A DNA stretch of 64,000 nucleotides from Candidatus Omnitrophota bacterium (GCA_041650295.1 JBAZLM010000005.1:36592-100591), one strand, 5' to 3'. Counted from the stretch's first letter, positions 3,463 through 63,300 are shown. Notes: generated from the sequence alone by a model not told the origin. Numbers and translations: made by a program.

Positions 3463-4051
3463 TTATTTATTAGGCTCTATACCTACGGCTTATCTTTTTG
3501 GTAAGTATTTAAAAGGTATTGATATTCGCAAATCCGGTTCAGGTAATGTGGGTGCCACTAACGCCTTACGGGTATTAGGGAAAAGAGCTGGGATAGTCGT
3601 TTTAATAATTGACATAGCAAAAGGTTTAGTTGTAGTTACCTTACTAGCAGATTTATTTGTCAATAAATCAGGATTATGGCAAGCACAAAACCTACGTATT
3701 ATCATGGGGTTATGTTGTATTTGCGGCCACATTTGGACCGTATTCCTACAGTTTAAGGGAGGCAAGGGGATTGCCACCTCATTTGGCGTTTTACTGGGTT
3801 TAGCCATGAAAATACCCGGTTTAAATATTGTGGTTGGCATTGTTATACTGGTCTGGATAATCGTTTTTATTTGTTTTCGTATGGTTTCACTGGCTTCAGT
3901 TTTAGCAGCACTTGCCTTACCCATTCTTTGCCTTCTCTTTAAGCAACCACTTTTACTTTCTCTAGTAAATTTGTTGCTTAGTGCTTTTGTAATTATGCGT
4001 CATAAAGCAAATCTTATCAGAATCTTTCAAGGTAAAGAATCTCGTCTATAA
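3431..4051 (+). CDS. plsY: glycerol-3-phosphate acyltransferase PlsY
   Basis: 206 aa. GSGNVGATNALR motif and polytopic membrane protein. Overlaps pgsA by 32 nt. Confidence 0.9.
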   Translation: MLLTIVALLVSYLLGSIPTAYLFGKYLKGIDIRKSGSGNVGATNALRVLGKRAGIVVLIIDIAKGLVVVTLLADLFVNKSGLWQAQNLRIIMGLCCICGHIWTVFLQFKGGKGIATSFGVLLGLAMKIPGLNIVVGIVILVWIIVFICFRMVSLASVLAALALPILCLLFKQPLLLSLVNLLLSAFVIMRHKANLIRIFQGKESRL

Positions 4052-4156: not shown

Positions 4157-4495
4157 ATGCGTGACTTACTTTACAAAAATTTAACTCTTTGTGATCGCGG
4201 ACGCAAAATTATTACTAGCGCCGAAGTCGCCGATAAAGAAGGCGTACACAGTATAGTGCGTCGCCATTTTACTTATTTTATTAAACCAATAGAAAGTGAC
4301 AGCCAGGAAAAACCGACTCCTTATCTTTATGTTTTAAAAGAAAGAAACACTAAAGAAAAAAGAGAGCATTTTTTCTGTAAAATAAAGGGAAGCCTAGTCG
4401 CTAAAAGCAATGGAAAGCTGCTCAACATATCCTTTATCCATACCCTTAGTGTAGAGCTTACTGCCTCACAAAATCAAGTCCAAAATATCGAATAA
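4157..4495 (+). CDS. hypothetical protein (112 aa)
   Basis: ORF only. Lys/Glu-rich with no recognisable motif. Sits alone between plsY and the OMP gene. Confidence 0.35.
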   Translation: MRDLLYKNLTLCDRGRKIITSAEVADKEGVHSIVRRHFTYFIKPIESDSQEKPTPYLYVLKERNTKEKREHFFCKIKGSLVAKSNGKLLNISFIHTLSVELTASQNQVQNIE

Positions 4496-26847: not shown

Positions 26848-26853
26848 ACTTTT

Positions 26854-39300: not shown

Positions 39301-42300
39301 TCAAAGAAACAATGGCCGAATTAGACAATCAGTACAAAATCAGAAGATTGCAAGAGATGCGACAGGTAGCAGTGCTAGAAATGTTAAATCTGAAAAGCAT
39401 GCTAGCAGAAAAACCAGCAAATTAAATCGTTTTTACGCTTGGTTAAAACAGCCTAAAATAGCCAAGTGGGTTAAACTATTAATCGTAGCTAGTTTAATTG
39501 GAGTGGCAACCTTAGTTTTTGCTACCCCGGAGATGGCGGCCAGGGTAAGTAGTATAAATAATGAAGCCATAAGTAACGCAGCGTACTATTTAAGTCCAAA
39601 GGTATTTGTAAAACACGCTATATTTTTTAGTTTTCTGATCTGGGTCAACCGCAGGGGTTATATATTCTTTCCTACATTCGCTTTCTTGTTCGGGATGAAT
39701 CAAGCCAGTCATTTAAATCTAAGATTAATCGGTACACCTTTCTTTATGAATTGGTTCTATAATTGCCTAGATGTTGCTTTATATGCTAGCTTAATATTAG
39801 CTTTTATTGAGTTTTCTAAGGCTGCTAATAAAATAGAGCATTGGGGTAGAGAAACTATTGGTATTTGGCCGGTAAAGATTAAAACAATTGCCAAGGTTGC
39901 GTCTTTCTTTTTCGTAGCTTTAACCGTGCAAGAATTAATGAGCGCAATGTCGTTTACCCGTTTTATGTTAGAAACTTTTTATACTGCGCAAAAGCTCACC
40001 TTTGATCCTTACGATATCCTTGCGTATTTAGGAGGAGGTGTAGCATTTTTCGTCTTAACTAGCATAATGTCAATTTCTAGGCGCCAAGCATTTATTCGAA
40101 AAAATCAGTTAAAGAAAAACAGTGTTAGAATGCAAAAAGATCAAAATAAGGATAATAAAAATAATTTTTTAACAGAAAAGAGAGCGATTCCTGAAGATAA
40201 TAAAACTACTACTTTACATAGTTATGTGTCGGTAGCGGTAATACCTTCAATTGTATTATCGTTAAGTTTTTTTGACGTGGCAGCTAATATCAGCGCTGCT
40301 TTTGTTGCAGTTACGATTGTTGGTGTTATTGGTTGGGGTATTTATCGGTTGGGTAAACTTATTCATAAAATCCTTATATTAAAAGCTAATTCTAAACAGG
40401 ATTTAAATAATGCTTTTGACGATAAAAATGACCCAGCCCGTCCTTTACCTGGTCAGCCGATGCCTACGAGAGAAGAAGCAAACACCGAAGTAGCTAGACA
40501 TGATTTAACGCAATTTGAAACAATTTCCGAAGATCGAGCGGAAGTAAAATTAGCTATAGAATATTTACGTTCGATTAATGAAAATCAATTAGCTCATTAC
40601 TTAGAATATTTAGCTAAAGCCGGATTAATTCGTGCTGGACCATTAGCCGGCTTCTTAGCTACTACTTATATTTTAGATCAAGATAATGATTTTATTCTCC
40701 TGTCCAATCTCTACCCTGCAGAGAATAGCGTTTCAGATTATGCCGCAAGTTTAGTTCATGAGATCGGTGCCATTTTTAAATTCAATCATCAAGAAAATCA
40801 GACACGAGAAGATAATTTCTATACTTGGTTAGCGGCCAAAGTACTTGAGCCGAATTTTGGCGCTGTAGTAAATACTCGTCTTACAACCGAGGCCGCTTCT
40901 GATAATTTTGTTGCCGATAAGAAAGCGCTTCCTTATAATTTCTTCTTCTCAAAATCGAATCGTTCTCGTGGCAATATTTTACCTGCCACTAAACCTTATC
41001 CTGATGCTAAACAATTACACCGCAATCATTCCCCAAAATATCTTTACAAAGATATCAAAGGCAAAGTTAAAGTGTTCTCTATTAAAGACCAGTCGATTCC
41101 TAAATCACAACACGCAGCGGTTCAAGAGATCAATGAAGAAGAGTTAGTGCAATTAGCATTAACCGGCGGATGGAAGGTAGTCGTAGCTAAAGATTATGAT
41201 CAGATGACTTATGCTTCTTTATATTTAGTGATTAAACTTATGCATCTGGCGCAAAGAGAATTTGCTATGGGGTTGGCTACCGGCGGCACCACAGAGTCAC
41301 TGCGCAAGGCGATGGGGTTACTCGATTATAGCCGCAAGATCTTAGATGGTCTTTCTCTTCCTGGGGATAAGGTAAATAAATGGTCTACCTTAGATAACTA
41401 TTATTGGAATAAGCTTGCCGAGATGATTGATGTATTGCTTTCTAGTTACACTCAGGAGCAGGGGTATATGCTTTTAGGGAATATCTATGGTAAAGATAGA
41501 ATAAACTATGATTATTTTGTTACGCCTTATGATAAAACCGACTTAAGTTTAGAGCAGGTAGCAGAAAATTTCCGCCTGCGCATGCGGGTATTTTTAAATG
41601 AGACTTATAGAATATTGGTGCAGTTGCACGGCATTGGTTCAGACGGCCATGATGGTTTTAACGAGATCTATCCATCAATGCCTCTTTTACGTCCAGATTA
41701 TGATTCTGAGCTTTTAGATATTACCAAAGTTCAGAATATCGGTCATTTCTTACCCAAAGGTTTTCATCCTTTCTTTTTAAGATTTATGGCGGATAATAAA
41801 ATTTTTTATATGTCTAGACTCATCGATGTTTTAAATCGTATGGGTTTTGAAAGAATCGCCGGGTATTATCCAGAGTCTAAATACCAATTTGCTTCAGAAA
41901 AAGAGTATCTAGATGAGGTAAAATATCTATTAAAATATTTTAAACTTACTCCGGCTCAGTCGATTACTCAGGGCTCAGGAGATATTCTTGAAAGGACCAA
42001 TAATCCGGATTCTTTAAATCTCTACATGAGTTCAGGAGCGCATAAAGCTACTCCGACTTATGATGCGGTTGAAAAAGAACCGTCTTTATACAATACTGCT
42101 TCTGCTATGCAGCTACAGGCTAATTCTATACTTATTGTAACGCTAGATGCCGCAGTAAAACTTGATCAAAGTAAATGTTTCTTCTTTGTTCCTCAGGCTT
42201 ATAATCCGCTTTTAGTTAGTGCCAAAGCCATTGAAGAGACTTGGCAAGAGACTGCTGAAGGCAGAAGGATCCATGCATTATTAGAAGAGAAGCATGGCAA

Positions 42301-45300
42301 GCATTCCTATCCGGCCACTATGCCAATAACCAATAAAGCAGATAAAGCTCCTACTCCTAGACAATTTAATAAAATTCTGCAGGCTCTTGGTGGAGAGCAA
42401 GCTTTAGCCAGCAAAGGAATAACTTTAAATATAAATAATGTGGTAATTAGCCCAGCATTAGAGGCTCCGGCGGAAGTCAGAGCAGGAGTATTATACGTTA
42501 ATCCTAATATCTTACGTGGTCCTCCGAAACAATTACGCGTAATCTTTGAAGGACATGAACTACTCCACTTAATTAATCCTACCGCTACTGAACAAAGAGT
42601 ACAGATATCTACAATTAATTACTTAGTAAACCATCATCGTCTTAATGCCCACATTAAATTTTTAAATAAGAATAAATTTGGTTTGAGAGCAGATATTACA
42701 TGGTTAACTACTTTAAATTTAAAATCTAAAGAAACAGCTGCTTCTAAAGATATTAAGTTTGAAAGGCTAGCCAAAGAAGATCTGCGATCTATGGCTAAAT
42801 ATTTAAGTCCTATTCTTGCTTTTGGTATCGTATTGTGTGTTGTGCCAGAAACTATTCTCGGGGCTTTAATGGCAATTCCTTTTATCGGTCTAGCAGTTTG
42901 GCGGTTAGTATTTCCTACTAATTGGCGCTTATGGACAGTAGCTACACTTAATTGCACAGATCGTCATTATCAAATTGCTTATAATAAACTCATTAAAACT
43001 AAAAATAAAAGAACAATTAAAGCATTAATTAAATGTTTAGAGGGAAAAAATTTAAATACTTGTTTAATTGCAATTAATATTCTTGGCAAAATTTATTCTG
43101 TAAAAACAAAAGCTAATAAATTTGATCAATTAGTAGTTTTATCTTTTATTGGCTTGGCACATAAGCTGTTAAATCCAAATGAAGAGATGTTTGCCTATTC
43201 TCGTTTTAGTATCTTTAAAACTATTATAAATACTTTATCTGTTTGGGTAGATACAGAAAAAACAATATTTGAAAAATCTAGTAATGAATATTTAGCAATT
43301 TATGAATTTTTTAGTAAATTCTTAGCTTCTAATGAGACAATACAAAATTCTGGATTTGAATTTTTAGCTTTACGGGAATTCTGTAAAAAATTTCCGGATC
43401 AGACGCCAGCTCATTGTGTTAGTAATTTAGTTAATTACGTTCTCGTTGGCAGTCCAACTGATCGTTCTGCTAATGGCGTCAGTACTGAAGAGGTGGAAAA
43501 GGCCATCGCCAAATTTGGTGGAATAGAAGAAATCTTAAAGCGAGAAATTACTAAATATACTGACTATATTAATATAATTTTTGGAATTAATATAGTAGAG
43601 CAAAAATTAAAGATTTCTTCAGAGATTATAAATTGTTTAATAGCTGCTTGTGGGGTACATTTTGCGCAAGCTCCTCCAGAATGGCATATCGGTGCTGCTA
43701 TTGGAATTTGTAAGCGTGAAGGTAAAGAAGAGCCAGTAATTATTATTACACAAGCAACTTCTGCCGATGCTATTGCTCATGAAATTTGCGCGATCTTAAT
43801 CCCTGGCTTAACACATGAAGAAAATTTAATAGTAAGTAAAAGAGTTAATTGTTCATTAGCTGCTTATGACTCTACCAATGCATTAGACAATTCTTTAAAA
43901 GGACGAGTAGAAAAAGTCTCAGGGGCTTTGGCTAGACTCTATAATCTGGATTCTCGTGAATTGCGCAATGTGCTTAATTTGGCTCCGGCTTGGGAGAAAG
44001 TTTTTAATGAAGAGATTCTTCCGGAGATTATTGATGGATATCTGCAGTATTTATCCTCTCCAAATGATAAAAAGCCTGCAGCGGTAGTTTTAATTACCGG
44101 AGAAGGCGGAATCGGTAAAACTACTGTAGCTTTGTCCTTTGATGAGATTGCGGAAGCGGCTTTAAAAAGAATTCGTGATGAAAAAAAATTATCAAGACAA
44201 TCAAATTTAGTAAGAGAGATTGCTTTCGATGATTATATTTTACAAAAAAACGATCGCCAAATTGATCCGTTAACTGGAGTTGCTACTGAAGATCCTTTTA
44301 AAAAATTCGAGTATGATCGTTTCTTAAAAGATATGCTAGCTTTGAGGCAAGGACAAACTATTTATAAGCCAATTTATGATTTCAATCTGCGTGGTCGACT
44401 TAAATTTGCTCTAAATCAAGAAAATCAGATAGTTTTAATGGTGGGTAATGAAGAAATTTTAGTTGGGGTTAATGTAGAAACCCAAGAGCCGTATTTCTCT
44501 TATCAAAATAAGCAGCAAGATTCATTAATGTTGGGTACTAATGAAATTAAAGTTGAGTTAAAAATATATCGTAATACTGAAAATAATATTGTTATTAATT
44601 TGCGAGACAGCGAGCATGTTTTTCGATTTGATGAAAAAGGTAAAGTTAATGTTAATGTTGGGGATGTTACACAAGTTTTAGAAAAAGGTAATTTAGTTGA
44701 AGCTTTGGAGATGATTGTTCCGCAGGGAAAAGTTTATATCGTTGAAGGTATTTTGGCTTTACAAAGCGATAAATTAAACGCTAAGTGTTTAACGGTTTAT
44801 ATTACAGGAGGTTTTGAGGCACGACTTTTACGTATGCTTAGCCGTTCGATGGGTGAAAGTGGAAGAAAGAACACGATTCAGGAGTTAGTTGAGCAACGTT
44901 TAAGATTAATAAAACTTGAAGAAATGCCTTACATTTGGCCAGTGAAAAAGAAGGCCCGTTGGGTAGTTACTAGTTTTAGTCGTTCAGAAGCTGTTTATAT
45001 GCTTTATATTCGTGGTCAACTAAATTGTCCTAATAAGAGAATAGTGCAAATTTTAAAAAGCTTAGGAGTTGATTGTCATGCACTAGTTGATGCATTGAAG
45101 AATATTTATCAGAATGAGGTGGCGGCTCGCTTAAGCGGTGGGCAGGGAATTCCTAGTGCTATTGAAGGAACAGCCTTTCATGTTTTTATGGATAATTGTG
45201 GTTTAGTTATAAAAGTGCCCCGCGCTGAATTTTTAAAGGAATTTGAAACAAATTTTATTAAGTTTTATAATACAGTGCTTAAAACTAGATTAGGTGGATT

Positions 45301-48300
45301 GATTGTTCCAGGAACAATTATTGATTTAAATAAGCTAGGTGTGGATATTAGCAGAGTAGTTGACGGTGATTTTTATAAATTTGAAAAGGTTCTTATTCAA
45401 AATAAAGTAGTAACGCTTGGTCAAAGATTAAATGATCTCTTAAAGGTTCAAGATATAGAGGGAGTAAAGAAATTAATTGATCAGTATTTTATTTTGCAGC
45501 AAGCGCTTTGGCGAAGGGGTGTTTGGGACAATAAGCCTAAGTTTATGGAGAAATATGGTTTTATTCCTTTAGATGGAGTAGAACAATTAGTGGTGGTTGG
45601 GGTTGATGGCTTAAAAGATAGGATAGAAGAATTTGATCCTACTTTATATATGAATAAAGATTTGCGTCCGCAAAATCTGCCGGCAGAATTAGAAGATTAT
45701 TATGATCTGAAGGTTAAGGAGATGATTTTTAGTAAAAATGACTTTTTAACTTATTTTGCCAGTGGATTGAAAGAGTGTCAAATGGCTCCAGATATTTCGG
45801 ATATTGAAATTGGTCGTAAACAAATGGATCATATTGTCACTACATTAAGGCAAGCGATGTTACAAAAATATCGTAAATTTTTTGGTTGTCTTAATTATAG
45901 TAGGGATAATCCGCTAATTTATTGGATAAAGTTTTATGTGGATACAGTTTATGCTAAAGGGGTAGCGCAGCAAGTTTTGTTAAATGCTTTTTATGAACAA
46001 GTTATTGAAGATCCCCAGATGTTAGATGAAGTCTCTAAAACTACTAGCAAACTTCAGGAAAAACTTAAAGAATTTAATCATAACGGTCTAGTCAGTGATT
46101 CCGGGCTTTTAGTGATGGCTGAAGAAATGCTTTATATTAAGAATGAATTTAATCATCAGAAAACGGATTCAACTGTTGGCGCTTTAGTGGGTGCTCAAAC
46201 TAAGACAACTGAAATTACCAATTATAGTGTTGAATTAGTATCTAAGCCAAAAATTACATCTGAAGAAATTGAAAAAATTCTATCAACTATGCGCGGTATG
46301 GCGGATGCGATGGCAGTTTTATGTACCGGTATTGAAGGATCTACTTATAAAGATGTTCCCGGTTTGCTTATTGATATTCAGAAAATGGAAGAACTTTTTG
46401 GGATTATTGCTGAGCGTGTAAAATCTACGGATAAAAATTTTGCTATTCATCCGGAGCTAGTTAATATTCGCGTGGCGGATGATGCTTTGGAAACTGTTCC
46501 TTCTTTAGAGGCATTAGAGACAGATCTCAAAGTTGGTATTTATCCGATTGCGGCTAATCCGATACATCTATCGCATATATTAGTTGGAATCGAAGCGATT
46601 GCTATTGGCAAGTGTGACGTGGTTTATTTTGATGTTCAATCCGGTGGGTATGTGCTTAAACCGATTTTAACCGCGACTGAAAAATATCGATACGAATTAA
46701 GTATGATACTTTTAGCTTTACTTGCTCCGTTCTTTGGTTTTGCGATAAATATTTCTAAAGACGGCGAAACGGATATTTTTAGAATTCAGAAGCTTAACCT
46801 TAATCAGAAAAGGGTTAAGTATGTTTATATTGTAGGTAGTGATCATTATCATCGGTGGGTAGAAAAAGACGCTTCGGATAATTTAATTCGGGGAACAGAA
46901 GAATATAGGCAGTATGTTTTAGTGCACAACGGCAAAGAGCCGACTCCGGATACAATTCAGAAGATGGAAGATAAATTAGTTGAATTTGGGGTGGATGCTT
47001 CGGAACTGGCCATATTATTTGTGGAGCGCATCGGTGAAGAAGCGCAAGAAACAATTGCTAGTTTATTAGATATCAGCATGCTTCCTCCGGTCGGGATGGC
47101 TTCTTCTACGGCGATTCGTAATGCTTTCAAGGCAATTGAAAGAATGACTAAGGATGAAGGCAATTTAAGCGCAGTGGAATTAGCAGAATTGCAAAAAGAT
47201 TTATTGAAAGGGTTAATTTATCTGCCGTATGTTAGCTACCAGTATATTATCGACCATTTGGATTATTTAGATATGCTGGTGCATCCTGAGGAATATGATG
47301 GGAGCAAGCCGGCTGATCGTGCGGCTAATGGCGCAAGTGCTAAAAGAGTTGATGCGGCTATTAATGATTTTGGTGGAATAAATGAAATTTTAAAGAATGA
47401 AATTAAGGATATTCTTTATGATAGAAATATTATGTTAGGTATTAATAAGGCGGCCTATAGCATGGATCAGGATCCTACGGCAATATATAGCGCGTTGATT
47501 GCGCGAGGAGTACATTTTGCTCAGGCACCTCCGAATTGGAAAATTGGCTCAGCCATTGGTATCTTAGATAAAGATGGAAAAATAGAATTGGTAGTTATCC
47601 TCTCTAAAGATGCAAATCCTGAAGAAGTTGCCCATGAAATCCGCGCTGTATTAATTTCAAGCTTAACTCACCAAGAAAATCAGTTATTAAGATCTAGTGA
47701 CAAAGTAGTTAAGAATATGTTTACTCATTCGATTGCTTTTCGTGGCTTGTTAACTCCCGAAGAAGACGCTGCCGTTGAATATTTTGATGACCCGATTAGC
47801 CCAGCTAAAAAAGGAGCAGTTCCCCTAAGCACACTTAAAGAGTATTCAGCAGCTGAAGAAATTATTTTTAACATCAAAGATATTGAATTAAAGAATCATG
47901 GTGCGCTGATACTTAATGAAGATTACCTGAAAAAATTTCATATTTATTTCTATCAGACTACTAGTAGTCCATCGCCTAATGCCAGCGTTGATTTTCAATA
48001 TATGAATATTTTTGTTTTTGCTAAATCTGCAGAAGAACTCAACGCACAGATTATTGCTAAAATATTAGTGCATGAATTAGTTGAATATGTTTTGGTTGAA
48101 CATTACTTAACAAATAATCAGTCAGCTAATTTTTCTGTAGCGCATCAGCAAGCCCTAGCAACAGTTAAGGATCTTGATGCCTTTATTTTAGCGAATAAGA
48201 AAACGAATAATTCTAGTGAAGCGCAATCACTATCTGATAAATTGATAGGTCAAAATAATGGCGCGGTAGTAAATACCTGTGGTAAAGATTTTCCTGTGAT

Positions 48301-51300
48301 TGCTAAATATTTTGCGGATGATCCGAGAAAAACATATTTGGCCTTGCGTAATTGGCAGAAAGAATTTAAGCAGCTTTTAGGGCAGGATAAAACATTAGAG
48401 CAGCTCACTACTTTTAAAGACGATCAGCATCCGGCCGGCACAGAGTACTTCTTATTAACTGATGAGCAAGGCAAATTTTTAAAGGACATTCAGGGTAATT
48501 ATATCATCCGTCCGCGCGATCTTTGCCATCAGGACGGGTCCTATCATCGCAGCGTTTTGATCGCCGCTATTGATTATCAGGGTAAATTTTTAAGGCAACA
48601 GCGTTCACAAACCAAGAGAATGTTTAAGCATTATTATGATCTTTCAGCCTGCGGGCATACTGCTTTGGATGCGGATTTGACAGGGGCGGCCCAAAGAGAG
48701 CTGGAAGAGGAGATATTCAATGATGAACATAAGATTGATTTAGCACGCTTAATTCAAATTACCCCGGATGCTTCGGTGCAGCATGATTTTATTTATACTG
48801 ATGAAAATGGTAGAAAATATATTGATAATGAGCGGTCGACGCTTTTTGTTTATTTTATGACCGAGGAAGAAAAGTTAAAGATTAAGTATCAGGTATCGGA
48901 GGTTGATCCTAAGGGCTGTAAATGGCTATGGTTTAAAAAAGAGGCGAATCGATATCGGGCTCATCCGGATAAATATGCAGCTGGCTTTAAAAGAGTGGTA
49001 GATAACCAGGATTTATATATAAAATTAACTAGTGTTGCAACGAGTGTTTATGGTGAAAATTATGCAGCAATTGCTGAAAAATTTGATGCCGAAACTTTTA
49101 AAGCTTTATATAAATTGACACATGAAGATCTCGACAATAAGGCCATGCAAGAAATTATGAATATAATTATAAGTAATTATCAGGAGCAAGGAATGATAGA
49201 CCGACTTTTTGGGATTGATTTATTAAATCCAGTAATGCAGCCGCTCGATTTTAATGATTTTAAGCGCCAGGAAGAAAACACTAGGTTTGTAGCTGACCGA
49301 GTGTTTCAGCTCACGGATTCTCATGATAAGTTATCAGTATTTAGTAGAGATAGATTACTTGATATGATTTGGGATGCCTTAAGGATAATTTATCTTTGGA
49401 TGCCCTTGTCTATATTTAAAAGATTTTATAACAATCAAGCGGTAGTGTCTGGACATGCTATCATGCATACTTTGGATGTTTTGGATGAGTGTTTTAGAAT
49501 TCAGAATGAACAGAAATATTTTTTATGGGAAGAAGATATCAAAAATTTAATTTTTGCCTCCTTGACTCATGATTTAAGTTATCTTATATATCAAGAAGGA
49601 CACTATCATTTTTCTTCAATTTGGGCAAGTGCTATTCTGGAGAAGAATAAAAAATATAATAAACATGCAGGAGACTGGACTTTTGGGACGCATAATAATA
49701 GATATGATGAAATTAAAGTGGGGGATATTATTAAGTTACATGATAAGGCAAAAGAGTACAATCTATACGATAATAATCAAGCAGCGGCGATTCTTCGGGA
49801 TGCTGATAAGTTAACTGCTGATTTAGATCCGCAGAGAATATATGATGCTAAGTGGTCAAATATATTGGAAAAGAACGGTTATACGCTAGAAAGGCCGGTA
49901 CCTTTTACAGAAATATTTTTTAATCCTCAAGAAGATCTTGATCATCGGGTAAAGGTGATAATCGATAATCTTCCGTATGATAGAAGTGATGCGGTTACAG
50001 ATCTTTTCCGTAAGATTATATACGATCGCAAGCAAGGTGGTGGATATTTGACCCGAGGGGGATCAGATATAATAAGCACTGCGGCTAATGATTTAAGTGT
50101 ATTGGTTGATTTTATTATAGATAAAGCGCAGGATTTGGAAGAAAAATATGGGTTTGGATTAGAAAGAATAGAACAAATTAAAGGAATTTTTTATGAACTT
50201 TATCATGTTATTTTTAATCAATGTTTTACTGAATCCCTGATTAATATAAATACAACTCGGGAAAATGAAATTTATTCACAAGAATTTAATTTGTTTAAAA
50301 GCAATCTAATCAACCGTATTTTAGAATTTAATCGAAGAATGCAAGAACCGTTGTTCTATGATAATGATGAAGATATTAATATGATTTTTTACGTATGGGA
50401 GTCTCAAGAGAGTCTTAACGCCGTTAAGTTTCTTGGGTCAATGGCAAAGGAAGGTTATTTAAACCGTGGCGAGATTGAATTAATTAAGGAGAATATAAAA
50501 ATTGCTTATGGACCAAACAAGCAAGTTCCTTCTGATTTTTTCCCGCTATACGATCAAATTTTTGATTTGTTTACTGTTGATTATGATACTGTTTTAGGTT
50601 ATTTTAACGATGTTGAACAAAATTTAGATACTACTTCAGGCCTTCGTAGTCAATTACAGGATTATTTAAATATTTCAGGGCAAGATAATAATCCTTTAGA
50701 CCGCTCAGCTAGAGGTAAGAGTAAAAGAAAAGTTAATGCGGCTATTAATGAATTTGGCGGGATAGAAAAAATACTGCAAGAGGGGACGTTGGATGTTGGC
50801 CTTTTCCAAAAGATTAATTCAGGTATTGATTGTACAGCAAAAAGTTTGGGAAAGACCGGTGAAGAGATTGAAAGATTATTGATGTCTAGGGGTGTGCATT
50901 TTGCGCAGGCGCCTCCGGGATGGGAAATCGGTCCAGCGATTGGTATTTTGAATCGCGATGAGAAAAAAGAGCTGGTAATTATTGTCCCCAAAGATGTGGA
51001 CATCGAAGATCTTGCCCATGAAATCCGCGCGGCAATTCTCCCCGGTTTAACCCATCAAGAAAATTTAAATATACAGGCAGTTAAAGAAATCCAACTCGAG
51101 CCGGTTTTTATTTCAGCAAATAAGCAAGCGCTTTCTTCTGAAGTAGCTTCAAATAAAGATTTTTTTGTACTGGTATTTAATTGCGGCAGCTCTTCAATTA
51201 AATACCAGTTTATTAATATGCAGGATGAATCAGTGGTGAAAAAAGGGACGATTAATATGATTGGCGAAAGCGATGGCCCGGCGAATTATTTAGAAGTAAT

Positions 51301-54300
51301 TAAGAATATTTTGGCGGATTTGTCTAGCTCCGGGTTGACTCCTTCGGCGATCGGTCATCGTGTAGTGCATGGTGGGGATAAATTTGAGGCATCAGTTTTA
51401 ATTAATGCCGATGTTAAGGCGGCGATTAAGGATTGTTTTAAGCTTGCCCCGCTGCATAATCCTGCGCATCTTATGGGCATCGAGGCTTGTGAAGAGCTGC
51501 TCCCGGGCATTCCGCAGGTTGCAGTTTTTGATACCGCTTTTCATAGCACTTTGCCTGCAGAAGCTTATTTATATGCTCTTCCTAAAGAGTATTACACTAA
51601 GTTTGGTATTAGGAAATATGGTTTTCATGGCACCAGCTATCGGTATGTCGCTAGTGCTGCGGCCAAACAATTAGGCATTCAGCCGGAAGATTTGAATGCG
51701 GTGATCTGCCATTTGGGTAATGGATGTTCAGTGGCAAAAATAAAAGCGGGAAAATCCGTGGATACGAGCATGGGGCTTACTCCTTTAGAGGGATTAGCCA
51801 TGGGCACGCGCTCCGGGGATATTGATGCCTCTGTGTTGGAGTTTATCGCTAATGAAACCGGAAAGAATATCGAAGAGCTGATGGCAATGTTAAATAAGGA
51901 TAGCGGATTATTAGGCATTTCCGGAGTAAGTAATAATATGATTAAATTACATGAAGCATTGGGAATAATTTCTCCGCGCCGGCCAAAGGAGATTAAAGAT
52001 GGAATTTCTAAAGTTGAGTTTTGGGCGGCGCAAGATGAAGATTTAATCAAAAAATATACTGCTTTAGCGCTTAAGGTTTTTACTTATCGCGTCGCCGGTT
52101 ATATCGGCAAGTATTATTGCGGCTTGCCGGCGGAGAGCGCTAAAATTATCTTTACGGCGGGCATTGGTGAGAATGCCGGTATGATTCGGCAAATGATTTT
52201 AGATCAGCTTCCGGGAATTGCGAATTTAGAGCAGCGGGTAATGGTGATTCCTACGGATGAGGAGCTGATGATTGCTCGAGATACGCAGGAGATTATTGAA
52301 AATATCCGGAATAATTCTATTTTGGCGCACAAGGGTTTTTTTGTTAAAGAGCAAGTTGGAGCACTGGTTAAAGTTTTAGGTTCTAGTACAACAAATGATA
52401 GTCAATTGGATGTAGATAATTTTATTATGAATATTTCGCAGTATGGCGCAATGACTACGGGTAAATGGTTAGGTCACCGGGAAAAAGTCGCGCAGGTAGT
52501 CAATGGTGAATTTTATAATGTTGTTCCGGTTACTATGCAGTTAGCACCTACTACAATTTGCCAATATAATTGTCCTACTTGTAGTTACGGTCGATCAAAA
52601 GAGGAGATCAGGAGTGCACTAAAATCAAAGACTGCCAATAAAAAAGATTTTTTTATGAGCATGGAAGATATGAAATTATATTTGGATCGCATTAAAGAAG
52701 CAGGAATAAAAGGTGTTATCTTCACTGGAGGTGGCGAACCGTTATTGAATCCTTACACGATAGATGGACTGGAGTATGCTAAGTCTTTAGGTTTACAGGT
52801 AGCCATGTTTACGGATGGCTACTTACTTACTCCGGAAACTGCTCAACGGATTATGAAAATTGGTTTAGTATTTTTACGCATTAGTTTTAACGCAGGAACG
52901 CCGGTTACCTATAAGCATTTTCACGGCACGACGGAAGATGCTTTTTATCGTGCAATTAAAAATATAGAGAATATAGCTGTGGCTAAAGAAATAACAAAGA
53001 GCCAAACCTCATTTGGGATTGGCGTTATCATTACTCCGTTAAATATTAAGGATCTTTTACATATTGCCAAGATTGTTAAGTCAATTGAAGAGCGCCATCC
53101 GGGAATGATTGAATTTATAGCTTATCGGCCGACCGTTCGTTATGAGCGTGGCTGTCAAAGAACCTTATTTACAAAGCAGGCGGTTGAATATATGCGCCAG
53201 ACTCCGGAATTAAGCCGTTATTATCAGGCGTATTATGATTTTATTTACAATGGAAAACAGTTCCCGGCTTCATTATTTCAAGAAGCGGTTACGATATTAG
53301 ATAACGAAGTTAAGCCATATTTGGAAAGTGGAGAATATCCGGTTAAGCTATTAACACCAAAAGGACGTATTGAAGGAGTTTACCAGACCGAAAAGCCTTT
53401 TTCGAAATGCTTAGCTTGTCCTTGGTGTAGTTTTATCGGACCGGAAGGCAATGTCTATCATTGTGTCGAGTTAGCGGTTGATTCTAGAACGATTTATGGC
53501 AACCTTAAAAAACAAACATTTAAAGAAATATGGGAAAGTCAGCAGAGAAAAGATGTCATTGAGCGGGTTAATGTTGAAGGGATGAAGTCTTTCTGTCCTC
53601 CAGTATGTTTATTATTTGAATATAATAAAATATTTGAAGATATTCAGCAGGGGTTAACTAATCCGGTGGTTCGGGAAAGATTGATTAAGGAAATTGAACG
53701 ATTTAGAGTTAGATTTGAACAGGAAGATTTGCCCATAGTCGGTAAAGGAGTAGATTTTATGTACCCGGCGAGGATGCCAGTAGCTAATGAGGAAGATCGG
53801 GAGCCGAGTAAGGCGGAATTAAGAATAATCCGCCGAGCCTTTGGCGGCAAGAGATATTATGAGAAAATTACTGGTAAAAAATTCAAGGATTTGGTAATTG
53901 TCCTTTATGCAGATTCAGATGTGGTGACCGAAGTTACTCCATCCGGAGCATTGTTAATTAACCCGAATCTTTTGCGCGGCCCGCCGAAACAGTTAAAAAT
54001 AATCTTCCAAAATCATGAATTATTTCATTTGCAGAATCCGAATATTGCTGAAGAGTTAGCCCACGCTTATACTATTCAATATTTATTAAAAAAAGGTTTA
54101 TTACAACGCCACCTATCCTTCTTAAAAAATAATAAAATTGGTTTAAAGCCGAATCGAGATTGGTTGTTAGAGTTAGAATTAGAAGATGTATTAATAAAAG
54201 TGATATCTTCTAAAGCTTCTCCTGCGCAGCAGGTAGCGATGATTGTTGAAAGAGCAGTTAATTTATTTAATCCAGATATAGTTTTTCAATGTATAGATGC

Positions 54301-57300
54301 CAGCCGTTGGATTAATTCTGGTTTGGATAAATTAGGTATCGTAAATTCACGCCGGGTAATTCATCTTAGCAAGGACATTACTCGAGAGCCGAAGATTGGC
54401 GAAAAAACCGAATATCACGATATTATTGAAGCGGTTTTTGAGGGCCAAATCTGGGTCATTGATACCCAAGCAAGACAATTTACGCAACAAACTAATAGTA
54501 GAATTCATGGTTTGTCTTTGGAGTTTGCTAATAAGTATATTTACAGCGCCAAAGATTATTATTCTATGCTTAAAGCGTTCTGGCTTGCTATGTCGGTTTT
54601 CCAAATTTCAGAAGCTTTGATTGATTCCACTGCTACCTCCCAAGGAATTGCGCCAGATTTAAAGAAAGCTTACTCAATTAAAAGTTCACGCATAAATTTT
54701 AAAAATTTATTAAGATTTTTAAGGGGAGCTGTTCAGCATAAAATAGGCCAAGGTATTATTTTGCATAACTTTGTGCCGTTTCCGATATTAGCTTTGGCAG
54801 TTTGGCCGGCAATAGCCGATTTTGTTGCAGCGCATCCGATATTAATGGGAGTAGGTATTTTATTAACTGGTGTTTGTTTAGCTTTGGTTTTATGGCGTAA
54901 ATTATTTCCGGTGAATTGGTATTCGCGAAGATTGAAAAGTTCGTTGGCTGAAGTTCGTGTTGAGGCAGCTATTGCTTTAGGAAAAACTAAAAATCATAAA
55001 GCCGTTAAGCCACTATTGGTGACGATCTATGATCATCATCTTTTAGTGCGCGACGCGGCGGTTGGCGCTTTGGGTCAGCTTAAAGATAGTCAAGCCATTG
55101 AGCCATTAATTGAATTATTTAGGATTTCAGATGATTATCGTAAAACGCTTATCATTAAAGCTCTTAGTGAAATAAGCGGTGAAAAAGTGTCAGTGGATAG
55201 CCTTGGCGCGGTGGTGGGTAGTAAGTTCGGTGAGCAGGAAGCAATTAAGATGAGTCAGGCGCTGCCTCTAGAACCAGTCGCTTCACCGCTTAGATTTGGC
55301 ACCAGTGGCTGGCGCAGTAGTAGATATACAGATTTTGTCATGCCCAATGTTCGACGTATATTAGAAGGAATTGCTTTGTATCACGATAGGGTGCTTAAGA
55401 AAGGAACATTTTTAATTGGTTATGATCCTAGAGCCGAAAATCAAAGTTTTGCTAAAGAAGCAGCGAGTATCTTTGCGGCACATGGTATTAAAACGCAAAT
55501 TATAATTAGTGATCCAACTCCTACTCCGGTTTTAGGATACTTAGCTGGTTCTAATGATGAGATTGCTGGAATTATCATTTTTTCCGCTAGCCATAACCCT
55601 GCCGAATATAATGGTATAAAATTTTATCAATATCACGGCGGTTCGGCGGATGTTGAAACTACGGATGTTATTTCAGAATTAGCCAATGCCGCCATAACCT
55701 ATAGGATAATGGATTATCAACAAGCTAAAGTAGAAGGCTTAATTACTGAAATTACTTTAGGTCAAGTAATTCAAAAATATGTTTTTGAATATATTATTCC
55801 TAGAGTTAAAGAAATCGGCGCTTGGAATGATATCGTAAATTATATCAAAAATAATCCGGAATTTGTGTTGGTGGTTGATCCGATGCAGGGTGCGGCGGTA
55901 GAATACTTAAAAGCAATTTATTTGCAGCTAGCCAAAGAAGCCGGTCGGGACTTCTTTATATTAATTCATACCAATAATCATGATCCAGAATTTTTAGAAG
56001 TAAATAGCGCGCCTAATCCGACATTGCCAGAAAATATAACTGAACTAATTAGTAAGGTATCCTTCGGCAAACAGGTTTTTGGTTTAGCGGTAGACGGGGA
56101 TGCGGATAGATTTAGAGTGATTGATTTTGGTGGCAAAGTTATTGAGGCTTCAGATGTAATTGCTATTTTAGCGCATTTTTTAAATACAGAGATTGGCTTG
56201 ACTGGTGTGATTGGAAAAAGTGTAGCCACATCTAATTTTGTCAATGCTATTGCTAAATATTTAAAATTAGATTTAGTGGAAGTTGGGGTAGGGTTTAAGA
56301 ATTTTGTGAATCAAGTAGTTAAAAATAAGGTTAATTTCTTAGTGGGCGGAGAAGAATCGGCCCATGTTTGTTTAGGGCTGTTGAATCAGTCTTGGGACGA
56401 TGGCATTGCTATAGGGCTATTGTGTTTTTGGGTAGTTGCGCGTACCGGCAAAACTATTTCTGGGTATAAAACTAGAATTGAAAAAGAAGTGGGGAAACAT
56501 TTTGACTCTGAAGTAATTACAATTTATGGCCAAGACGATTCGATTAAGGATGTAATTACTAATTTAATTCAAAAGACTGCAGAGGAACTAGAATCCGGAG
56601 TTCCGGCTTTAAAGACGACAATTGTAAAACAGGTCAGCAAGTTACAAAATAAGAAGGTAAAGGAATTAATTACTTTAGATGGCTTAAAAATTGTTTTTGC
56701 ATCCGACGATTGGATCCTTTTGCGACCTTCGGGAACTGAGCCAGCAGTTAGGCTTTATGTAGAAGTCACAGATTCATCTAAATTTGCTAGCTTGGTTAAG
56801 CTAGGTAGGGCTTTATTGGGAGTAGAAGAAGAGATTAGTCAAAATTTAAACCCGATTGCTTACCGCGGTTCTTTAACAGATGAAGAAAATTTGATTGCCC
56901 AAAGGTTAGCTAAAACAGCCGATCCTCTGACAGAAGGAGCAAGAGTGGCAGGGAGCTTAAGAGGGTATAAATCTGCAACTAGCATAATTTGCAATAATAT
57001 TAAAAATATTCATCTAGATGCTTATGGTAAGTTAGAATTAGAAGCTATTTTGAATAAATTTTCAATTTATTTTTATCAAACTGCTAATCGTTCGCCACCT
57101 AATGCGGTAACCGATGCTTTCAACCATCGTATTATCATTTTTGCTAATACAGAAGAGGAGCTCACCCATAAACTTTTGGTAAAAATTTTAATTCATGAAC
57201 TTGTCGAATATGAAATTCTCAATGACCCTCAGGTAACCACCGCTATTGCCCATCATCAAGCAGAGTTAGTTATAGATAGCTTAGATGATGTGGCGATTTT

Positions 57301-60300
57301 ATTCAACGATGAAGAATCGATATATTTTTCTAAAACAATCATTGATGCATTAAATAAGCTATTTTTAGAGCAAGATTTCTTAGATTATTATAATTTAATT
57401 TATCCGCAGAAGTTAGCTATCACTGGAGTAGATCATCAGCCCGGAAGAGATTTAGTAGATATTTTAATTGATACTACTTCTGGACAGCGTGAATTCAAGG
57501 TAGCTTTATATAAATCTGGCTATTCATTAGATAATAACATAGAAAATAGATATTTAAGGATAGCTAGTAGAATTGTCGGATTATATCAAAATTTTCTTTT
57601 GCAAAGAATAGATAATGAATTAGATGCTGTTGGGATTAAAACCGCAGATGTAATTGAACAAATTGAAGATTCATTTCGTCAAACTGTTTACGATCAAGAA
57701 TGGGAATCTTTAAGTGAGGGCTCAGATGCCAAAGTATATAAAAATCAGGATTCTTCATTAGTAATTAAGGCAGTAAAAGAAAGAAGTCTTAGTTATGATT
57801 ATTCTTATAATGTTAATCCTTTTATAAATTATCAATTAGCAAAACAATATTTAGGGCATTTAGCTGTACGTTTTTTAATCTTGGATAATTTGAAAATTAG
57901 ACTCCCAGATAAAGATGGGAATATTGAAGAAGTAATTATTGAAAGAGCGGTTGTGCAGAAATTTGTTAAAGTATTTTTTAAATTAGGAGTACATGACTAT
58001 ACAAAATATGAACATTGTACTGGTATTTTAGCCGATTTGATTAAAGAAGGAAAAATTGAAACGGCAAAATTTATAATTGGTGAATTTTTAAAAGGCGTGC
58101 GAGCAATTTTAGCCCGTGGATTATTTGATTGGGATATCAAAGCAGAGAATTATGGATATGATCCTTCGGTGGGTAAAGTAGCAACATTGGATATGGGTAA
58201 ATTATTGTTATATGATCAGGTTGTGCTTACTTCAGCAAAGGTATTTGTAAGAAATTTAAAAATTACCAGCGATGATATCTATGAATGGACTAAATTTGTT
58301 ATTAATCAAGAAGCGGCTCTTGAATTAAAGAATTATTTTGATACTTCAGTAAAAAAGGTTTTTTGGTTGGCCTATGATGAGGTGGGATTAGATATTACTA
58401 AAGATCTGAATGTTTTAGATAAAGAACATATGTTAGAAGACAGTGTGCGATATGATTTATGTTATGACAATTCAATAGGAAAGCCGGTTAATTATGCCGG
58501 TACTAGAGAAACTAGAGAAAGGGCTGCGCGGTTAATTTCTAAATATTTAAAAGACAATAATATAGATATTGATGCGGTGGAGATGGTTTTTGCTAAATTT
58601 GGTTTTGCCCAGCTTTGCCAAGAAACAGAAGTTTCTAAAATGTTATCCGATGGTTTTGTTTCTGATAATATTTTCTGTCTTGCTTTAGATGAAAATAGCA
58701 ATCCTTATTGCGGTATTAAAGCCAGAGAGCCCAAGAATTTTCCTACTGTTCAATATGTATTATATAACGATGAATATAAAGGCCAGCTTACTACTCGTCA
58801 AGACTCTGTTAATATTAAAAAAGCAGTAGTTAAAACATTGCTTCGATATTATGACTATCGTCAAGAAGTATATGATACTTTAGCAAAAAAATTTGCATTG
58901 GATAAAACTTTAAAAATTTGGAATTCTATGAACTTGAGGGAAGAATTTGAAAAAATAAAATACAATAATTTAAACGTTGATCAGAAGGATACCTTGAATT
59001 TATTATTAGGTATTTGTAAAGATGGTGATTTAGCTGGAAGGATGATCTTGGCTTTCGATGAGTTGGCAGAGACCAGAAGATATCCTTTTGGCATAGATTT
59101 GAATAAGATGTATTTGATTAAGTCCGAGAATGATTTTGCCGTTGAGGTCTTTGGGATGGGTACCTTTACTCGGAAAACCCAGGAAAAAGAGGTGCTCTTG
59201 CATATGCATCAAAATCTTAGCTTTTCTTACGAGGATATTTTGGAGGCGATTGTAGAAAGTAAAGATGAGATGGGTGCAACTATTTTTATTAGTAAGGTTT
59301 ATTTTCAGTGTAGTGCAATGGATAGCGAGCTTAAAGAAGTATTAATGAAAAAATTAAACCAGCTTCGTTCCTCTGATTATACTGGCGTATTTGATAGTGT
59401 TGTAAATGGTTTACCTAAGAATCATTTGCTTTGCTCAGCGAACAATTTAACTGATCAAAATAATGCCTATCCTTTACCGGTGCCGGAAGCGGTTCGCTCT
59501 GATATAAATAAAACATTTATTAATTCCACGGTAAATAATTTAGAAATACAGACTTCTCATATTCCGGTGAATGCTTATTTTGAGTCGCTGCAAAATATTT
59601 TAAGCGTTTTTAAAAAATGTTTTGGTCGCGCTCCCCCGAGATTAGGTCTCTGGCAATTGCTTGTTTCCACGGATTTAAGCTTAACGCGAGGCAAGGTTGC
59701 CGCCTGCGATATTAAATCCCGAACTGTTTATCTGCACACTTATTTTTTTCAACTTTCCCAAGCTAAACAATTAGAAATTCTTTATCATGAGCTCATTAGC
59801 CATATGCAAAAGGGTATCGCCGATGAAAATATTGCTCTGCGTGATACGAATGCTTTCTTTTGGCTACAACCCAATGCTCCCCAACTAGTCGGGAAAACGT
59901 TGATGACTTTATCGATGGAAGGTAATATTCCGGAATTTGCCGGATATCCGGATGCGCAGAATGCTTGTACTCGGGGTGGATTAGGTGCATATTTTGGCGA
60001 TAAGTTGGAAGGGTTGTTTGCGATTGGCTTGACTGCCTGGGGCGTTGAGCCGGCTTATGCTTATACTACTAGAGATGGAAAAGATATCGCCGTGGATTAT
60101 GCGCCATTATTTAATCAGGGCGTGATTAGTAAAGTTTTAGATAAAAATGGTGCTCCTTTAGTGTTACAAGTTTATGCTTGGGATGATCAATGCAAAAGTT
60201 CACTTTATAAGGATAAATCCATCGCGGTGGAAGTTTGGCTGGTTAACCGCGGAGGCACGCCGCTATATCTTTTATACTCACAGGAAGTATTTAATAATCT

Positions 60301-63300
60301 TTATACGGATAATCGTGCACATCGTTTTACTCAGGAGATAGTTTTTGGTAAAGCGGTTTATTGTTTAATGAAGACACTTAAAATTGTTCCGGATATTATG
60401 CATTTAAATGAGGCGCATACCGTAGTGGCTGCCGCGCAGGCTAGAGCGGACAATGATTTTAACAAAATGGTTATTGTTTATACCAATCACACATTAGTTC
60501 CGGCTGGACTGGAAATTTTTCATGCTTCCAATTTGGGCGTAGACTCTAACCGGATGATGTATCAAATTGGCGTGCCGGCGGAAGAAGAGTGCAAGTTTCG
60601 TTCATATTTTTTACGTGCGAACGGAATGGTAGATTTTTGTTCTGCAGCAGTGCATTTAGCCGATGTCATTAATGCGGTGAGCTTAGAGCATGCGGCGGCA
60701 ACACAGAGACTTTTCCGTTCGATGTATGGTGATGAATTCAAGACTAAAGTTGTGGGTGTACTTAATGGTTCAGGTAAAACTTGGATGAATGATTCATTAA
60801 GGGTAATTCAAGATCGTGGTCTAATGGCTAATCAGGAAGAGTTAAACTTAATTCATCAAAAGGGTAAAATAGAGGCTTTTGCAGAGATTGAAGCCAGAAC
60901 CCAGGTGCAATTAGATTTAAGCAAACCAACGATTTGGATGGTGCGTCGGATTGTAGATTATAAGAGCCAGTATCCGATGTTACGATTTTTATTACATATT
61001 TTGTGTGCTGATCGCAATATTAGCTATACGCGCGATCAACTGCAAACAGCTTGGTTTAGAGATATTCCGGATTTATTAACACAAGAGAATCGTAATTTAT
61101 CGCAAGAGGTGTTGAATTATATTTTTGCCCAAAAAGAAAGGGTTTTCGGTTTAGGATTTCAGGTAGTGGTGGGCGGTCCGGAGTATATGTCATTTTGGAT
61201 TGCTGAATTTAAACGTTGGTCGCTACTTCCTGAATTTAGAGGAAAATTTATTTATGTGCCAAATTCGGATGCCCGCTTGCTTAAGATGCAAGCCATTGGG
61301 GCGGATATTTGTATTAATATCCCTCGACCGTTAGAAGAGGCTTGCGGAACTTCTGATCAAAGAACTGGATTAAACGGTGGGGTTAATGTGGCTATCCGTG
61401 GCGCTGGTCCGGTAGAGTGGATCACCGATTATAATGAACAGAGTAAAGCGGGAAGTGGATTTTTATTAGAGTCATATACTAATACTGTAGATAATGAAGT
61501 TACTGCAGATAATTATTTATTTTATCGTAAGGCACCGGCCGATATTCTTTCTAAGTTAGAAGTAGCGCGTGGATTGTTTGATCTGCAAGATAAGTCTGCT
61601 TGGAAAAAATTGATGCACGATGCTTACCTTGACGCTAACGCTAAAGTGAGCGCTAAAGCGATGGAACAGCGTTATGCTTTAAATGTTTACCAACCTAAGG
61701 CGACAGATGAATTAAGAAAAAAAATAGCGCAAGCTAATGATTTCCCGCTTTCTGCGATGGAGATGATGGATGTGTTAGAGCTGGGAATTTGCCAGCAGGA
61801 TAAGCAATTGCTTTTTGATTTATTAGCCAGGGTAAAATCCACAATTTTTCCTGCCGCCACCGGGCGGATTATGAAAACGATGATGAAGATTTGCGACCGG
61901 TATGGGTATGAGATTACTCAAGCGCAGGCAGATATTTTGCTAAGTTTTGCGGATAATTTATATTTCCCGGAAGAAATCTGCGAATTTTTTACTAAAACAC
62001 AATGGCGTGGCTACGCTTTTAATTATTTAAATGAAAAATTCCAAAAAATTCATCCGGATGCAAGCATTAGTTACGCTCCGACGCGGCGAAGAAACTTGTT
62101 GTCAAGTTTAAGTATTTTAGCTAAAGACGCTGGCTTACTACAAGAAACTTTAGACCAAATATGGTTTAATTCAGCGGTTAGGTTTAGCCGAAGATATATT
62201 ACTTACGAACTTAGAGAAGGTAGAATTAGTGAAGTTAAAGATGAGGCGATAATTTTTATTTATCATAAAAATCCTAACGGCAAAATAAGTTATGAATCGA
62301 TTTATGCGCATGGAAAAGTTAGGCCTGATCATCGGACCTTGTCGCCAGGTCAGAAATATATGGGTAAAGTGTTTAAAGTCGGAGAAATTTATGAGGGGAT
62401 GCCGGCATTTGATTTCAATGGAGAAGAAATATTAAAAGATTGCGATGAGAATATCCTTTCTTTACGGGGGACATACACTGAGCTGGAAAGTGTAGTAGGG
62501 GGATTTGTAAGATTGGATCTGCCCAGACTTCCGGTAGAACAATTATTAAATGTTACCGGTGAAAAAGATCTAGATGCTTATATTTTTAGACAAATTGTGT
62601 CGGCAGCGAAATTTATGGCAGCCATTGTTAACCCGCAGAAAGAATTAGTCTTAGAAGCGTTGATCAAAGAGAGCTTAGAAAAAAGATTTAATCGCTCATT
62701 GCCTTTACGTTTTTCGATCGAAGATTTTAATCGTTGGGTAGCCGGGGAGCAAGTTTTAGGAATTCAGAATCAGCAAAAAATAGTTATTCCAAATTGCGCT
62801 GAACTTGAGTCGGTTTGTGTTTCTGACTCAGATGGAATACATCCTAGATTTGCATTAGCTTTAAGAGATATGCTTGATGAAAAATTTCCGGGGGTACAAG
62901 TAGTTTTAGAAAAAGCTGATGGAAGAATGGCTTTTGCCAGTGATGATCAGGAAATTACCAAGTTGGCTTGTACGCAGGGTGAAGTAATCTATGTATTTGC
63001 TTGGGGTGATAGTCATCGCCATGCTGCTGCGGCCTTGGATAGAGTTATTTCGTTAATTAATCCTAATGGACGTACTATTGGTCTTACTTTTGGTCACGGT
63101 CGAGGTCTGGTGATGAGAGCCGATGAAGTTTTAGCTGTGCAGCAAAGCGGAAAGACTATCCATCATCCTTTTCTGTTGGCGGGAAAAAATCCAGCTGATT
63201 TGGAGAATGTAATTTTGGAAATTTCTTCTTGGGGCGCATTACAGGGGGTGATGACGGTTAGCGGCGGTGAGTTTAACCATGTTGCGGTAAATTTTAGAGA

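Follow-up and report, generated by a model that had tools for sequence, protein, structure and literature searches.

In a 64,000-nt stretch of a Candidatus Omnitrophota genome (GCA_041650295.1, JBAZLM010000005.1:36592-100591; referred to as the window), a giant open reading frame (ORF) encodes three copies of a domain of about 135 amino acids (aa), here called module A, which lie among different metabolic enzyme domains. Module A is very probably a genuine new domain family, and it is restricted to giant multi-enzyme proteins of Candidatus Omnitrophota. We tentatively read it as a variant zincin-like metallohydrolase that may act as a peptidase on the giant polypeptide. That the module is derived from zincins and binds a metal is close to an even call; that it cleaves the giant protein is distinctly unlikely.

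The three copies share a single reading frame inside the giant ORF. Their limits, set with a profile hidden Markov model (HMM), are as follows.

43445-43849, + strand: module A copy 1 (aa 3372-3506), with PTDRSANG starting at 43454, HEICA at 43778-43792 and LTHEEN at 43808-43825

47297-47704, + strand: module A copy 2 (aa 4656-4791), with PADRAANG at 47309, HEIRAV at 47633-47650 and SLTHQENQ at 47660-47683

50681-51088, + strand: module A copy 3 (aa 5784-5919), with PLDRSARG at 50693, HEIRAA at 51017-51034 and GLTHQENL at 51044-51067

Each copy matches the HMM with E ~1e-50. By pairwise BLASTP of 400-aa chunks, copies 1 and 2 are 47% identical (E 4.5e-33), copies 1 and 3 43% (E 1.5e-30) and copies 2 and 3 52% (E 1.9e-37). 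A preliminary description of the sequence had reported three similar segments with a shared block and had proposed aligning them. The block is indeed present in the frame of the giant ORF, and the alignment is gapless across 135 aa, with significant similarity (44-47% aa and 55-60% nt identity). The segments are therefore real, but their starts had been placed off-frame relative to the giant ORF and their limits were slightly too narrow. The flanks do not align, and the similarity ends sharply at both module edges. When the window was scanned with the HMM in all six frames, these three full copies were found and no more, all in the giant ORF. A degenerate A-like half-copy lies upstream.

40625-40798, + strand: degenerate fourth A-like half-copy (aa ~2432-2489; hhalign E 1e-4, probability 57%)

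It reads LIRAGPLAGF...DFILLSN...LVHEIGAIFKFNHQEN, and of the module's elements it retains, recognisably, just the sheet and the C-terminal pair of helices.

An exhaustive HMM profile search of 1.84 billion representative proteins (E ≤ 1e-3) yielded 30 matches, 28 of them genuine; P0017 and P0028 were excluded as repeat-protein false positives. The 28 members are long proteins or fragments of up to 7,327 aa, and P0006, P0015 and P0027 carry two copies each. All eight members with an organism label are proteins of Candidatus Omnitrophota/Omnitrophica metagenome-assembled genomes (MAGs). A scan of GTDB gave one locus, on an Omnitrophota MAG contig that is a single ORF from end to end, and the locus L002 is one ORF of 2,843 aa. 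A search of metagenomes with an HMM of the module, suggested in the preliminary description by its GVHFAQAPP motif, was thus productive among proteins; among JGI metagenome contigs, with the patterns used, no relatives were found. The same held for the 2.9 million viral contigs of IMG/VR, and a homolog search by word index gave zero matches with either alignment, that of the 3 copies or that of 27 sequences. Pfam, NCBIfam and PHROGs, searched with the modules and all 27 members at E ≤ 10, returned nothing consistent, and a sequence-profile search of the PDB with the full-length module and its C-terminal half gave only insignificant matches to VOC, FEN1 and L23 proteins.

Copy 2 is 67% identical to its counterpart in P0001 and copy 1 is 54% identical to that in P0002, both from other MAGs, compared with 47-51% among the sibling copies. 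Because the window copies are as close or closer to copies of other MAGs than to their siblings, they are old paralogs, kept under selection, and not products of a recent periodic duplication. Only the block of copy 1 (module plus PRK-like region, ~1,000 aa) is collinear with another giant protein, P0002, which lacks the blocks of copies 2 and 3.

Copy 2 was modelled with AlphaFold2 from the 27-sequence alignment, and a model from the 3-sequence alignment agrees with it. The predicted local distance difference test score (pLDDT) is 91.7 (91.1-91.7 over five models) and the predicted template modelling score (pTM) is 0.87; pLDDT is ≥ 90 at 126 of the 145 modelled residues, unlike the disorder of a flexible linker, and the motifs, conserved down to 25% identity, do not show a linker's poor conservation. 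The model consists of four N-terminal helices, a helix at residues 67-76, strands at 80-83, 93-99 and 102-109, and two C-terminal helices at 115-126 and 132-140. The HE pair (residues 120/121) sits in the middle of helix 115-126, and H132 opens helix 132-140. The published core of zincin metallopeptidases (MPTases) comprises a helix, three strands, a helix carrying H-E and a further helix, and HEXXXH variants exist among zincin-like MPTases (PMC5512222). Compared by the order of elements alone, the predicted module fits this core. Foldseek against BFVD gave no match at E ≤ 1e-3; below significance, zincin-like peptidases are over-represented among the best-ranked entries, with an endopeptidase family M34 protein at rank 1 (E 0.014, probability 0.82), large polyvalent-protein-associated proteins at ranks 2 and 3, SprT-like proteins at ranks 8, 22 and 32, a putative peptidase at rank 9 and IrrE-like proteins at ranks 14 and 18.

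Conservation was counted in an alignment of 27 homologous domains, which share the signature PxD(R/A)SxxGxS...V...I..FGGI ... GVxFxRAPPxWxIG ... IILP ... AHEIxAVLxPxLTHxEN. P85, H120 and H132 are invariant (27/27 for each His), and F81, G91 and E121 (25 Glu, 2 Asp) nearly so. D14, G19 and N135 are each kept in 24 of the 27 domains, S16 and W88 each in 22. Position 134, two residues into the helix that H132 opens and considered here as a position in the sequence only, is Glu in 17 domains, Gln in six, Asp in three and Asn in one. At position 124, where HExxH has its second His, 24 of the 27 domains carry Ala and none carries His; the residue at +5 is Val, Ala or Ile. The motifs are retained down to 25-30% identity among homologs. 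The earlier suggestion that HEIxA...LTHxE may bind a metal therefore concerns the best conserved residues of the family, whose pattern fits a metal-binding or catalytic site. Since residues of catalytic type are the best conserved, a dead scaffold is disfavoured.

Two ideas about the N-terminal half of the module were dropped. The element V..AI..FGGIE.IL, which resembles FGSxE in 5' nucleases and in UvrC, was considered as a DNA-binding helix-hairpin-helix, but the FEN1 match has an E of 0.9 and no Pfam family of that motif was matched, so that the idea was left unsupported. So was docking of the PxDRS segment as a substrate in the active site, for which the DSSP string gives isolated bridges only.

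The enzyme domains that follow the three copies differ.

44087-44437, + strand: PRK/uridine-kinase-like P-loop domain (Pfam PF00485, E 1.3e-7; ITGEGGIGKTT at 44093), ~80 aa downstream of copy 1

48542-48949, + strand: NUDIX domain (Pfam PF00293, E 1.4e-5), downstream of copy 2 and of the first copy of repeat family B

51167-51958, + strand: acetate kinase domain (Pfam PF00871, E 1.1e-110; the end is that of the best Pfam stretch), whose N-terminus VLVFNCGSS lies 35 aa past the HQEN of copy 3

The preliminary description had each copy precede a different enzyme block, and this was confirmed for the PRK/uridine-kinase-like domain, for the B repeat with NUDIX and for acetate kinase; the HD domain that it also listed was not detected in the giant ORF with Pfam at E ≤ 0.01. 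The spacing to upstream enzymes can be short: ~6 aa separate the module from the C-terminus of the preceding phosphoglucose isomerase (PGI)-like domain in L002, and ~20 aa from the preceding phosphoglycerate kinase (PGK) in P0004. Across copies and homologs, upstream partners are PGK, PGI, phosphorylase, a phosphoenolpyruvate (PEP)-utilizer and metallophosphoesterase, and downstream partners are PRK-like kinase, acetate kinase, hexokinase and UDPGP. Between the copies, repeated sequence is limited to two unrelated short families. Module A is thus the genuine recurring module among different enzyme blocks that had been described; with partners that differ among copies and among homologs, and hence no fixed enzyme partner, the proposal that it defines a repeating super-unit finds no support, and the compact, confidently predicted alpha/beta domain speaks against its description as a linker.

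In nine instances (in P0006, P0009, P0015, P0019, P0022, P0024, P0025 and P0030), the module is followed, at a distance of 20-80 aa, by a transmembrane (TM)-like hydrophobic segment; the three window copies have none at this distance. A C-terminal extension that ends in FGx(I/L)LD(R/P)(R/S) ~40 aa past the module occurs in P0001, P0002, P0004-P0010, P0012, P0014, P0016 and P0026, and its end resembles the N-terminal xD(R/A)S motif of the module. The counterpart in the window, at ~43930-43950, is weak (NLDSR). As a speculation, the xD(R/A)S-like motifs at the N-terminus and in the extension could be recognition or cleavage sites.

The module sits between unrelated enzymes, often only a few residues past the C-terminus of the upstream one, and we therefore proposed that it may be a peptidase acting on the giant polypeptide. 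In the putative active site, Ala stands where HExxH has its second His, and H132, 12 residues downstream of H120, would replace that His as a metal ligand. The third ligand could be E134 or the conserved Asp of the N-terminal PxD(R/A)S, and E121 would serve as general base. Such a module might cut the giant polypeptide in cis or at neighbouring junctions, and cutting would release or activate the enzyme blocks.

The closest precedent is found in the polyvalent proteins of phages and plasmids, whose zincin-like MPTases were described by Iyer, Burroughs, Anand, de Souza and Aravind in 2017; where interspersed in several copies, these domains are predicted autoprocessors, and HEXXXH variants are tolerated (PMC5512222). 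Like module A, they are small alpha/beta domains with a three-stranded sheet, one helix before it and two after, the first of these with H-E, and one to five copies are interspersed among unrelated enzymatic domains of very large polypeptides. In the window, module A copies start at aa 3372, 4656 and 5784 among PRK-like, NUDIX, acetate kinase and other blocks. The junction position, the interspersed multi-copy pattern and this precedent together suggest processing of the giant polypeptide. Unlike the polyvalent-protein MPTases, however, module A has the motif HExxA-x7-H-x-E-N in place of HExxH...E and no significant sequence or structure match; its host is not a mobile element but a chromosomal Omnitrophota giant gene, with Wood-Ljungdahl genes, tRNA-Met and a tilS-like gene nearby, and its partners are enzymes of central metabolism, not conflict effectors. 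In zincins of the SprT/Wss1 and metzincin types, a His ~10-19 residues downstream of the first His is a metal ligand. The invariant His at +12 of module A is comparable, and three of the sub-threshold fold matches are SprT-like proteins; those zincins keep both His of HExxH, the second of which (+4) is replaced by Ala in module A, and homology to them is not detectable.

Within Omnitrophota giants, C39 and S8 peptidase domains have been proposed to cleave the proteins that carry them (West-Roberts et al. 2023, 10.1101/2023.11.21.568195). They share with module A the host proteins and the candidate role of cutting the giant polypeptide into parts. C39 and S8 are, however, known Pfam cysteine and serine peptidases near the N- or C-termini, while module A is unannotated, putatively of metallo-type, and internal; neither C39 nor S8 was detected with Pfam in the 10,223 aa of the giant ORF. 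The cysteine protease domain (CPD) of MARTX and large clostridial toxins is a protease within a giant multi-effector protein that releases neighbouring modules; it is present in a single copy and activated by inositol hexakisphosphate. As its catalytic class and fold differ from those of module A, the analogy is one of function only. Peptidases of MPTase type in Omnitrophota giants were mentioned in passing by Burroughs et al. (10.1101/2025.01.14.632903); the kind is thus already known, and the family and motif of module A are new.

The giant ORF contains three further repeat or domain families with HE motifs, B, C and D.

47657-48178, + strand: family B copy 1 (aa 4776-4949), KILVHELVEY (HExxE), directly adjoining module A copy 2

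56786-57286, + strand: family B copy 2 (aa 7819-7985), adjoining the C-terminus of the phosphoglucomutase block

42308-42703, + strand: family C copy 1 (aa 2993-3124), HExxH

53762-54163, + strand: family C copy 2 (aa 6811-6944), HExxH

59462-59998, + strand: family D (aa 8711-8889), GRAPPxLxxW...TVYLHxYFF...QLEILYHELISH..DE, HExxxH plus E

The B copies are 37% identical (E 4e-25; consensus KILxHELVEY), and the C copies 39% (E 3e-26), with HELLH or HELFH followed by xxNP...E within GxLYxNPNxLRGPPKQLxxIFxxHELxHLxNP. In both families, the HE motif follows a hydrophobic strand. A third C member, in P0004, has HELAR in place of HExxH, and the N-terminal element of family C, D(K/R)xP...I..A.GG, resembles that of module A. 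Family D (~170 aa) is highly conserved, GRAPPELSSW...GNVAACDI...TVYLHPYFF...ILYHELISHI..DE, and shares RAPP..W and the strand-loop-HE layout with module A. The window protein and P0004 have one D copy each and P0002 has four (locus L001, aa 2-150, 2260-2475, 3106-3284 and 4165-4299). Neither Pfam nor the PDB gave a match to B, C or D, and a homolog search with D returned 12 fragments, all without annotation, which do not connect the family to any named peptidase. By hhalign, A and D match with E 0.006-0.009 over up to 57 collinear columns, D and C with E 0.001, D and G1 with E 0.008, and A and C with E 0.02 in the N-terminal element only; A and B do not match, and module A has at most weak or local matches to families B, C and G1-G7. 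After correction for about a dozen comparisons, the profile links among A, C and D are suggestive only. The 27 module-bearing proteins contain 13 HExxH motifs in 57.7 k aa, often as HExxHxxNP...E, versus 1.0±1.1 in shuffles (~13-fold); the giant proteins thus seem to hold many small HExxH domains missed by Pfam. This enrichment, and the presence of C and D with canonical motifs in a strand-loop-helix context like that of module A, speak for the zincin-like reading of the module.

In a stronger form of the processing idea, module A would be a protease that cleaves itself at enzyme junctions by means of a re-wired zincin site (a His, a second His at +12 and a carboxylate), and the giant protein would be a polyprotein diced into single metabolic enzymes. 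The cut would fall at or near the N-terminal PxD(R/A)S and, in many homologs, also at (I/L)LD(R/P)(R/S) ~40 aa downstream, and A, B, C and D together would be mini-zincins that radiated within this lineage and mark the cleavage points. We consider this improbable.

Several observations weigh against a zincin-like peptidase. Similarity in sequence or structure to an established zincin was never significant, be it in Pfam, NCBIfam, PHROGs, the PDB or Foldseek searches. Foldseek with both models found no match in the PDB (best E 0.2-0.7), and its top 50 PDB entries held no zincins except anthrax lethal factor, at rank 10 with the first model. The first C-terminal helix carries HExxA in place of the HEXXH or HEXXXH of zincins, and E134, a candidate ligand, is Glu in just 63% of the domains. 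The apparent match to the zincin core is one of element order, with the closeness of H120, H132, E134 and D14 assumed. The links to C and D have P values of ~1e-3 to 1e-2, uncorrected for ~12 comparisons, and C and D are themselves zincin-like by motif only. As for cleavage, a polyprotein usually needs one protease, not three, and a crude topology count, made with an unreliable TM prediction, puts copy 1 across the membrane from copies 2 and 3. Our confidence in cleavage is low.

The loss of the canonical second His (Ala in 24 of 27) is also what one would expect of a non-catalytic adaptor or pseudo-peptidase, perhaps zincin-derived, that serves as a spacer or docking unit and organises or oligomerises the enzyme modules or binds a peptide. 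Its neighbours are as heterogeneous as those of a generic connector, the TM-like segments 20-80 aa downstream in nine homologs suggest a juxtamembrane structural role, and no active enzyme family is matched significantly. Pseudo-enzymes, however, usually lose their catalytic residues first, whereas here the sole invariant polar residues are two His, joined by a nearly invariant Glu, in a zincin-like arrangement. Moreover, the conservation of Ala124 points to a site that was remodelled rather than one that decayed, and the motif survives divergence to 25-30% identity. We regard an adaptor as unlikely, though worth keeping in view. Much the same limited likelihood applies to a new domain that binds a metal or ligand and has no relation to zincins, such as a small-molecule hydrolase or a sensor regulating the adjacent nucleotide-dependent enzymes; its likeness to zincins would be convergent. 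A very confident model without a PDB neighbour would be explained in this way, as would an N-terminal half (four helices and the conserved FGGI hairpin) without a zincin counterpart, and the downstream partners (PRK-like kinase, acetate kinase, hexokinase and UDPGP) use nucleotides or phosphate. Against this, non-kinase partners and upstream-only associations also occur, the order of elements with HE on the helix after the sheet fits the zincin core, and the sub-threshold fold matches are peptidases, not sensors.

Half of a vicinal oxygen chelate (VOC; glyoxalase/bleomycin-resistance) module is very improbable. The stretch LLxRGVxFxRAPPxWxIGxA...G recalls the alpha-beta-beta-beta part of a VOC unit, and there were weak PDB-profile matches over ~30 residues to the glyoxalase-family chains 5uhj/5umq, but their E-values (0.12; 1.3 with the half-profile) are not significant. 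The VOC fold was rejected for module A: there is one alpha-beta-beta-beta stretch, which lacks both the first strand and the second module of a VOC pair, the conserved His and Glu are on helices and not on the strands that hold VOC ligands, and no VOC protein is among the top Foldseek PDB matches despite the abundance of VOC structures there. Chance or compositional similarity in a long AT-rich ORF has only the low GC content of the giant ORF (36%) in its favour and can be dismissed in view of the BLASTP E-values of 1e-30 to 1e-37, the HMM matches of ~1e-50 per copy, 28 independent homologs and a confident fold.

It is an open question whether Omnitrophota giants work as intact chains or in pieces, and no cleavage points are known (West-Roberts et al., 10.1101/2023.11.21.568195). 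Module A, a conserved, confidently folded and unannotated domain with protease-like invariant residues at enzyme junctions, offers a testable handle on the cleavage of giant proteins, and processing by it, if true, would address that question. To our knowledge, the longest known bacterial proteins are encoded by Omnitrophota, and part of their 'dark' sequence consists of several small HE-motif domain families that are invisible to Pfam-based surveys. If HExxA with a relocated His does form an active site, the ligand arrangements known for zincins would be extended by a new one.

The giant ORF that carries the module is complete at its 5' end, where AAAGGAG precedes the ATG. It has no stop codon up to the end of the window and is open on the 3' side, so that its length is a lower bound.

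33332-64000, + strand: giant ORF (ATG at 33332; at least 10,223 aa) with PRK-like, NUDIX, acetate kinase, radical SAM/SPASM, HEAT, phosphoglucomutase and starch-synthase-like domains

Pfam placed the PRK/uridine-kinase-like domain at aa ~3586-3702, NUDIX at aa 5071-5206 and acetate kinase from aa 5946, and further detected radical SAM with SPASM, HEAT, phosphoglucomutase I-IV and a starch-synthase-like GT5 domain; aa 1-2,500 had no Pfam match. A hydropathy scan gave ~14 hydrophobic TM-like segments. Among the classes of Omnitrophota giants described in 10.64898/2026.06.07.730766, the protein belongs to the 'multi-enzyme metabolic cluster'.

The genes 5' of the giant ORF are of chromosomal type and include cdhD, RACo, an amidase gene, a tilS-like PP-loop gene, tRNA-Met and a 2,097-aa fusion of glutamate dehydrogenase (GDH) and UDPGP. 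At 25516-28776 (+ strand) lie the Wood-Ljungdahl accessory genes, for the delta subunit of CO dehydrogenase/acetyl-CoA synthase (CdhD) and the corrinoid activase RACo. The fusion ORF at 10971-17264 (+ strand) joins glutamate-dehydrogenase-like domains to a UDP-glucose pyrophosphorylase-like domain and is thus a second, smaller multi-enzyme protein; it has no module A copy. An identical copy of the tilS-like gene, together with the beginning of the giant gene, is present at the end of a 153-kb contig (L003; ENA ERZ27247363, k141_1439332), which breaks 437 codons into the giant ORF and is an example of assembly truncating giant genes. Near the 3' end of the window, at ~62810-63049 (aa ~9827-9906), there is a match to HPr of the phosphotransferase system (PTS) that stays below threshold (E 0.008, 16.6 bits versus a cut-off of 23). 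At 63833-63847 (aa 10168), HEFYE follows a hydrophobic stretch, and the surrounding block is 65% identical to aa 4690-4882 of P0002.

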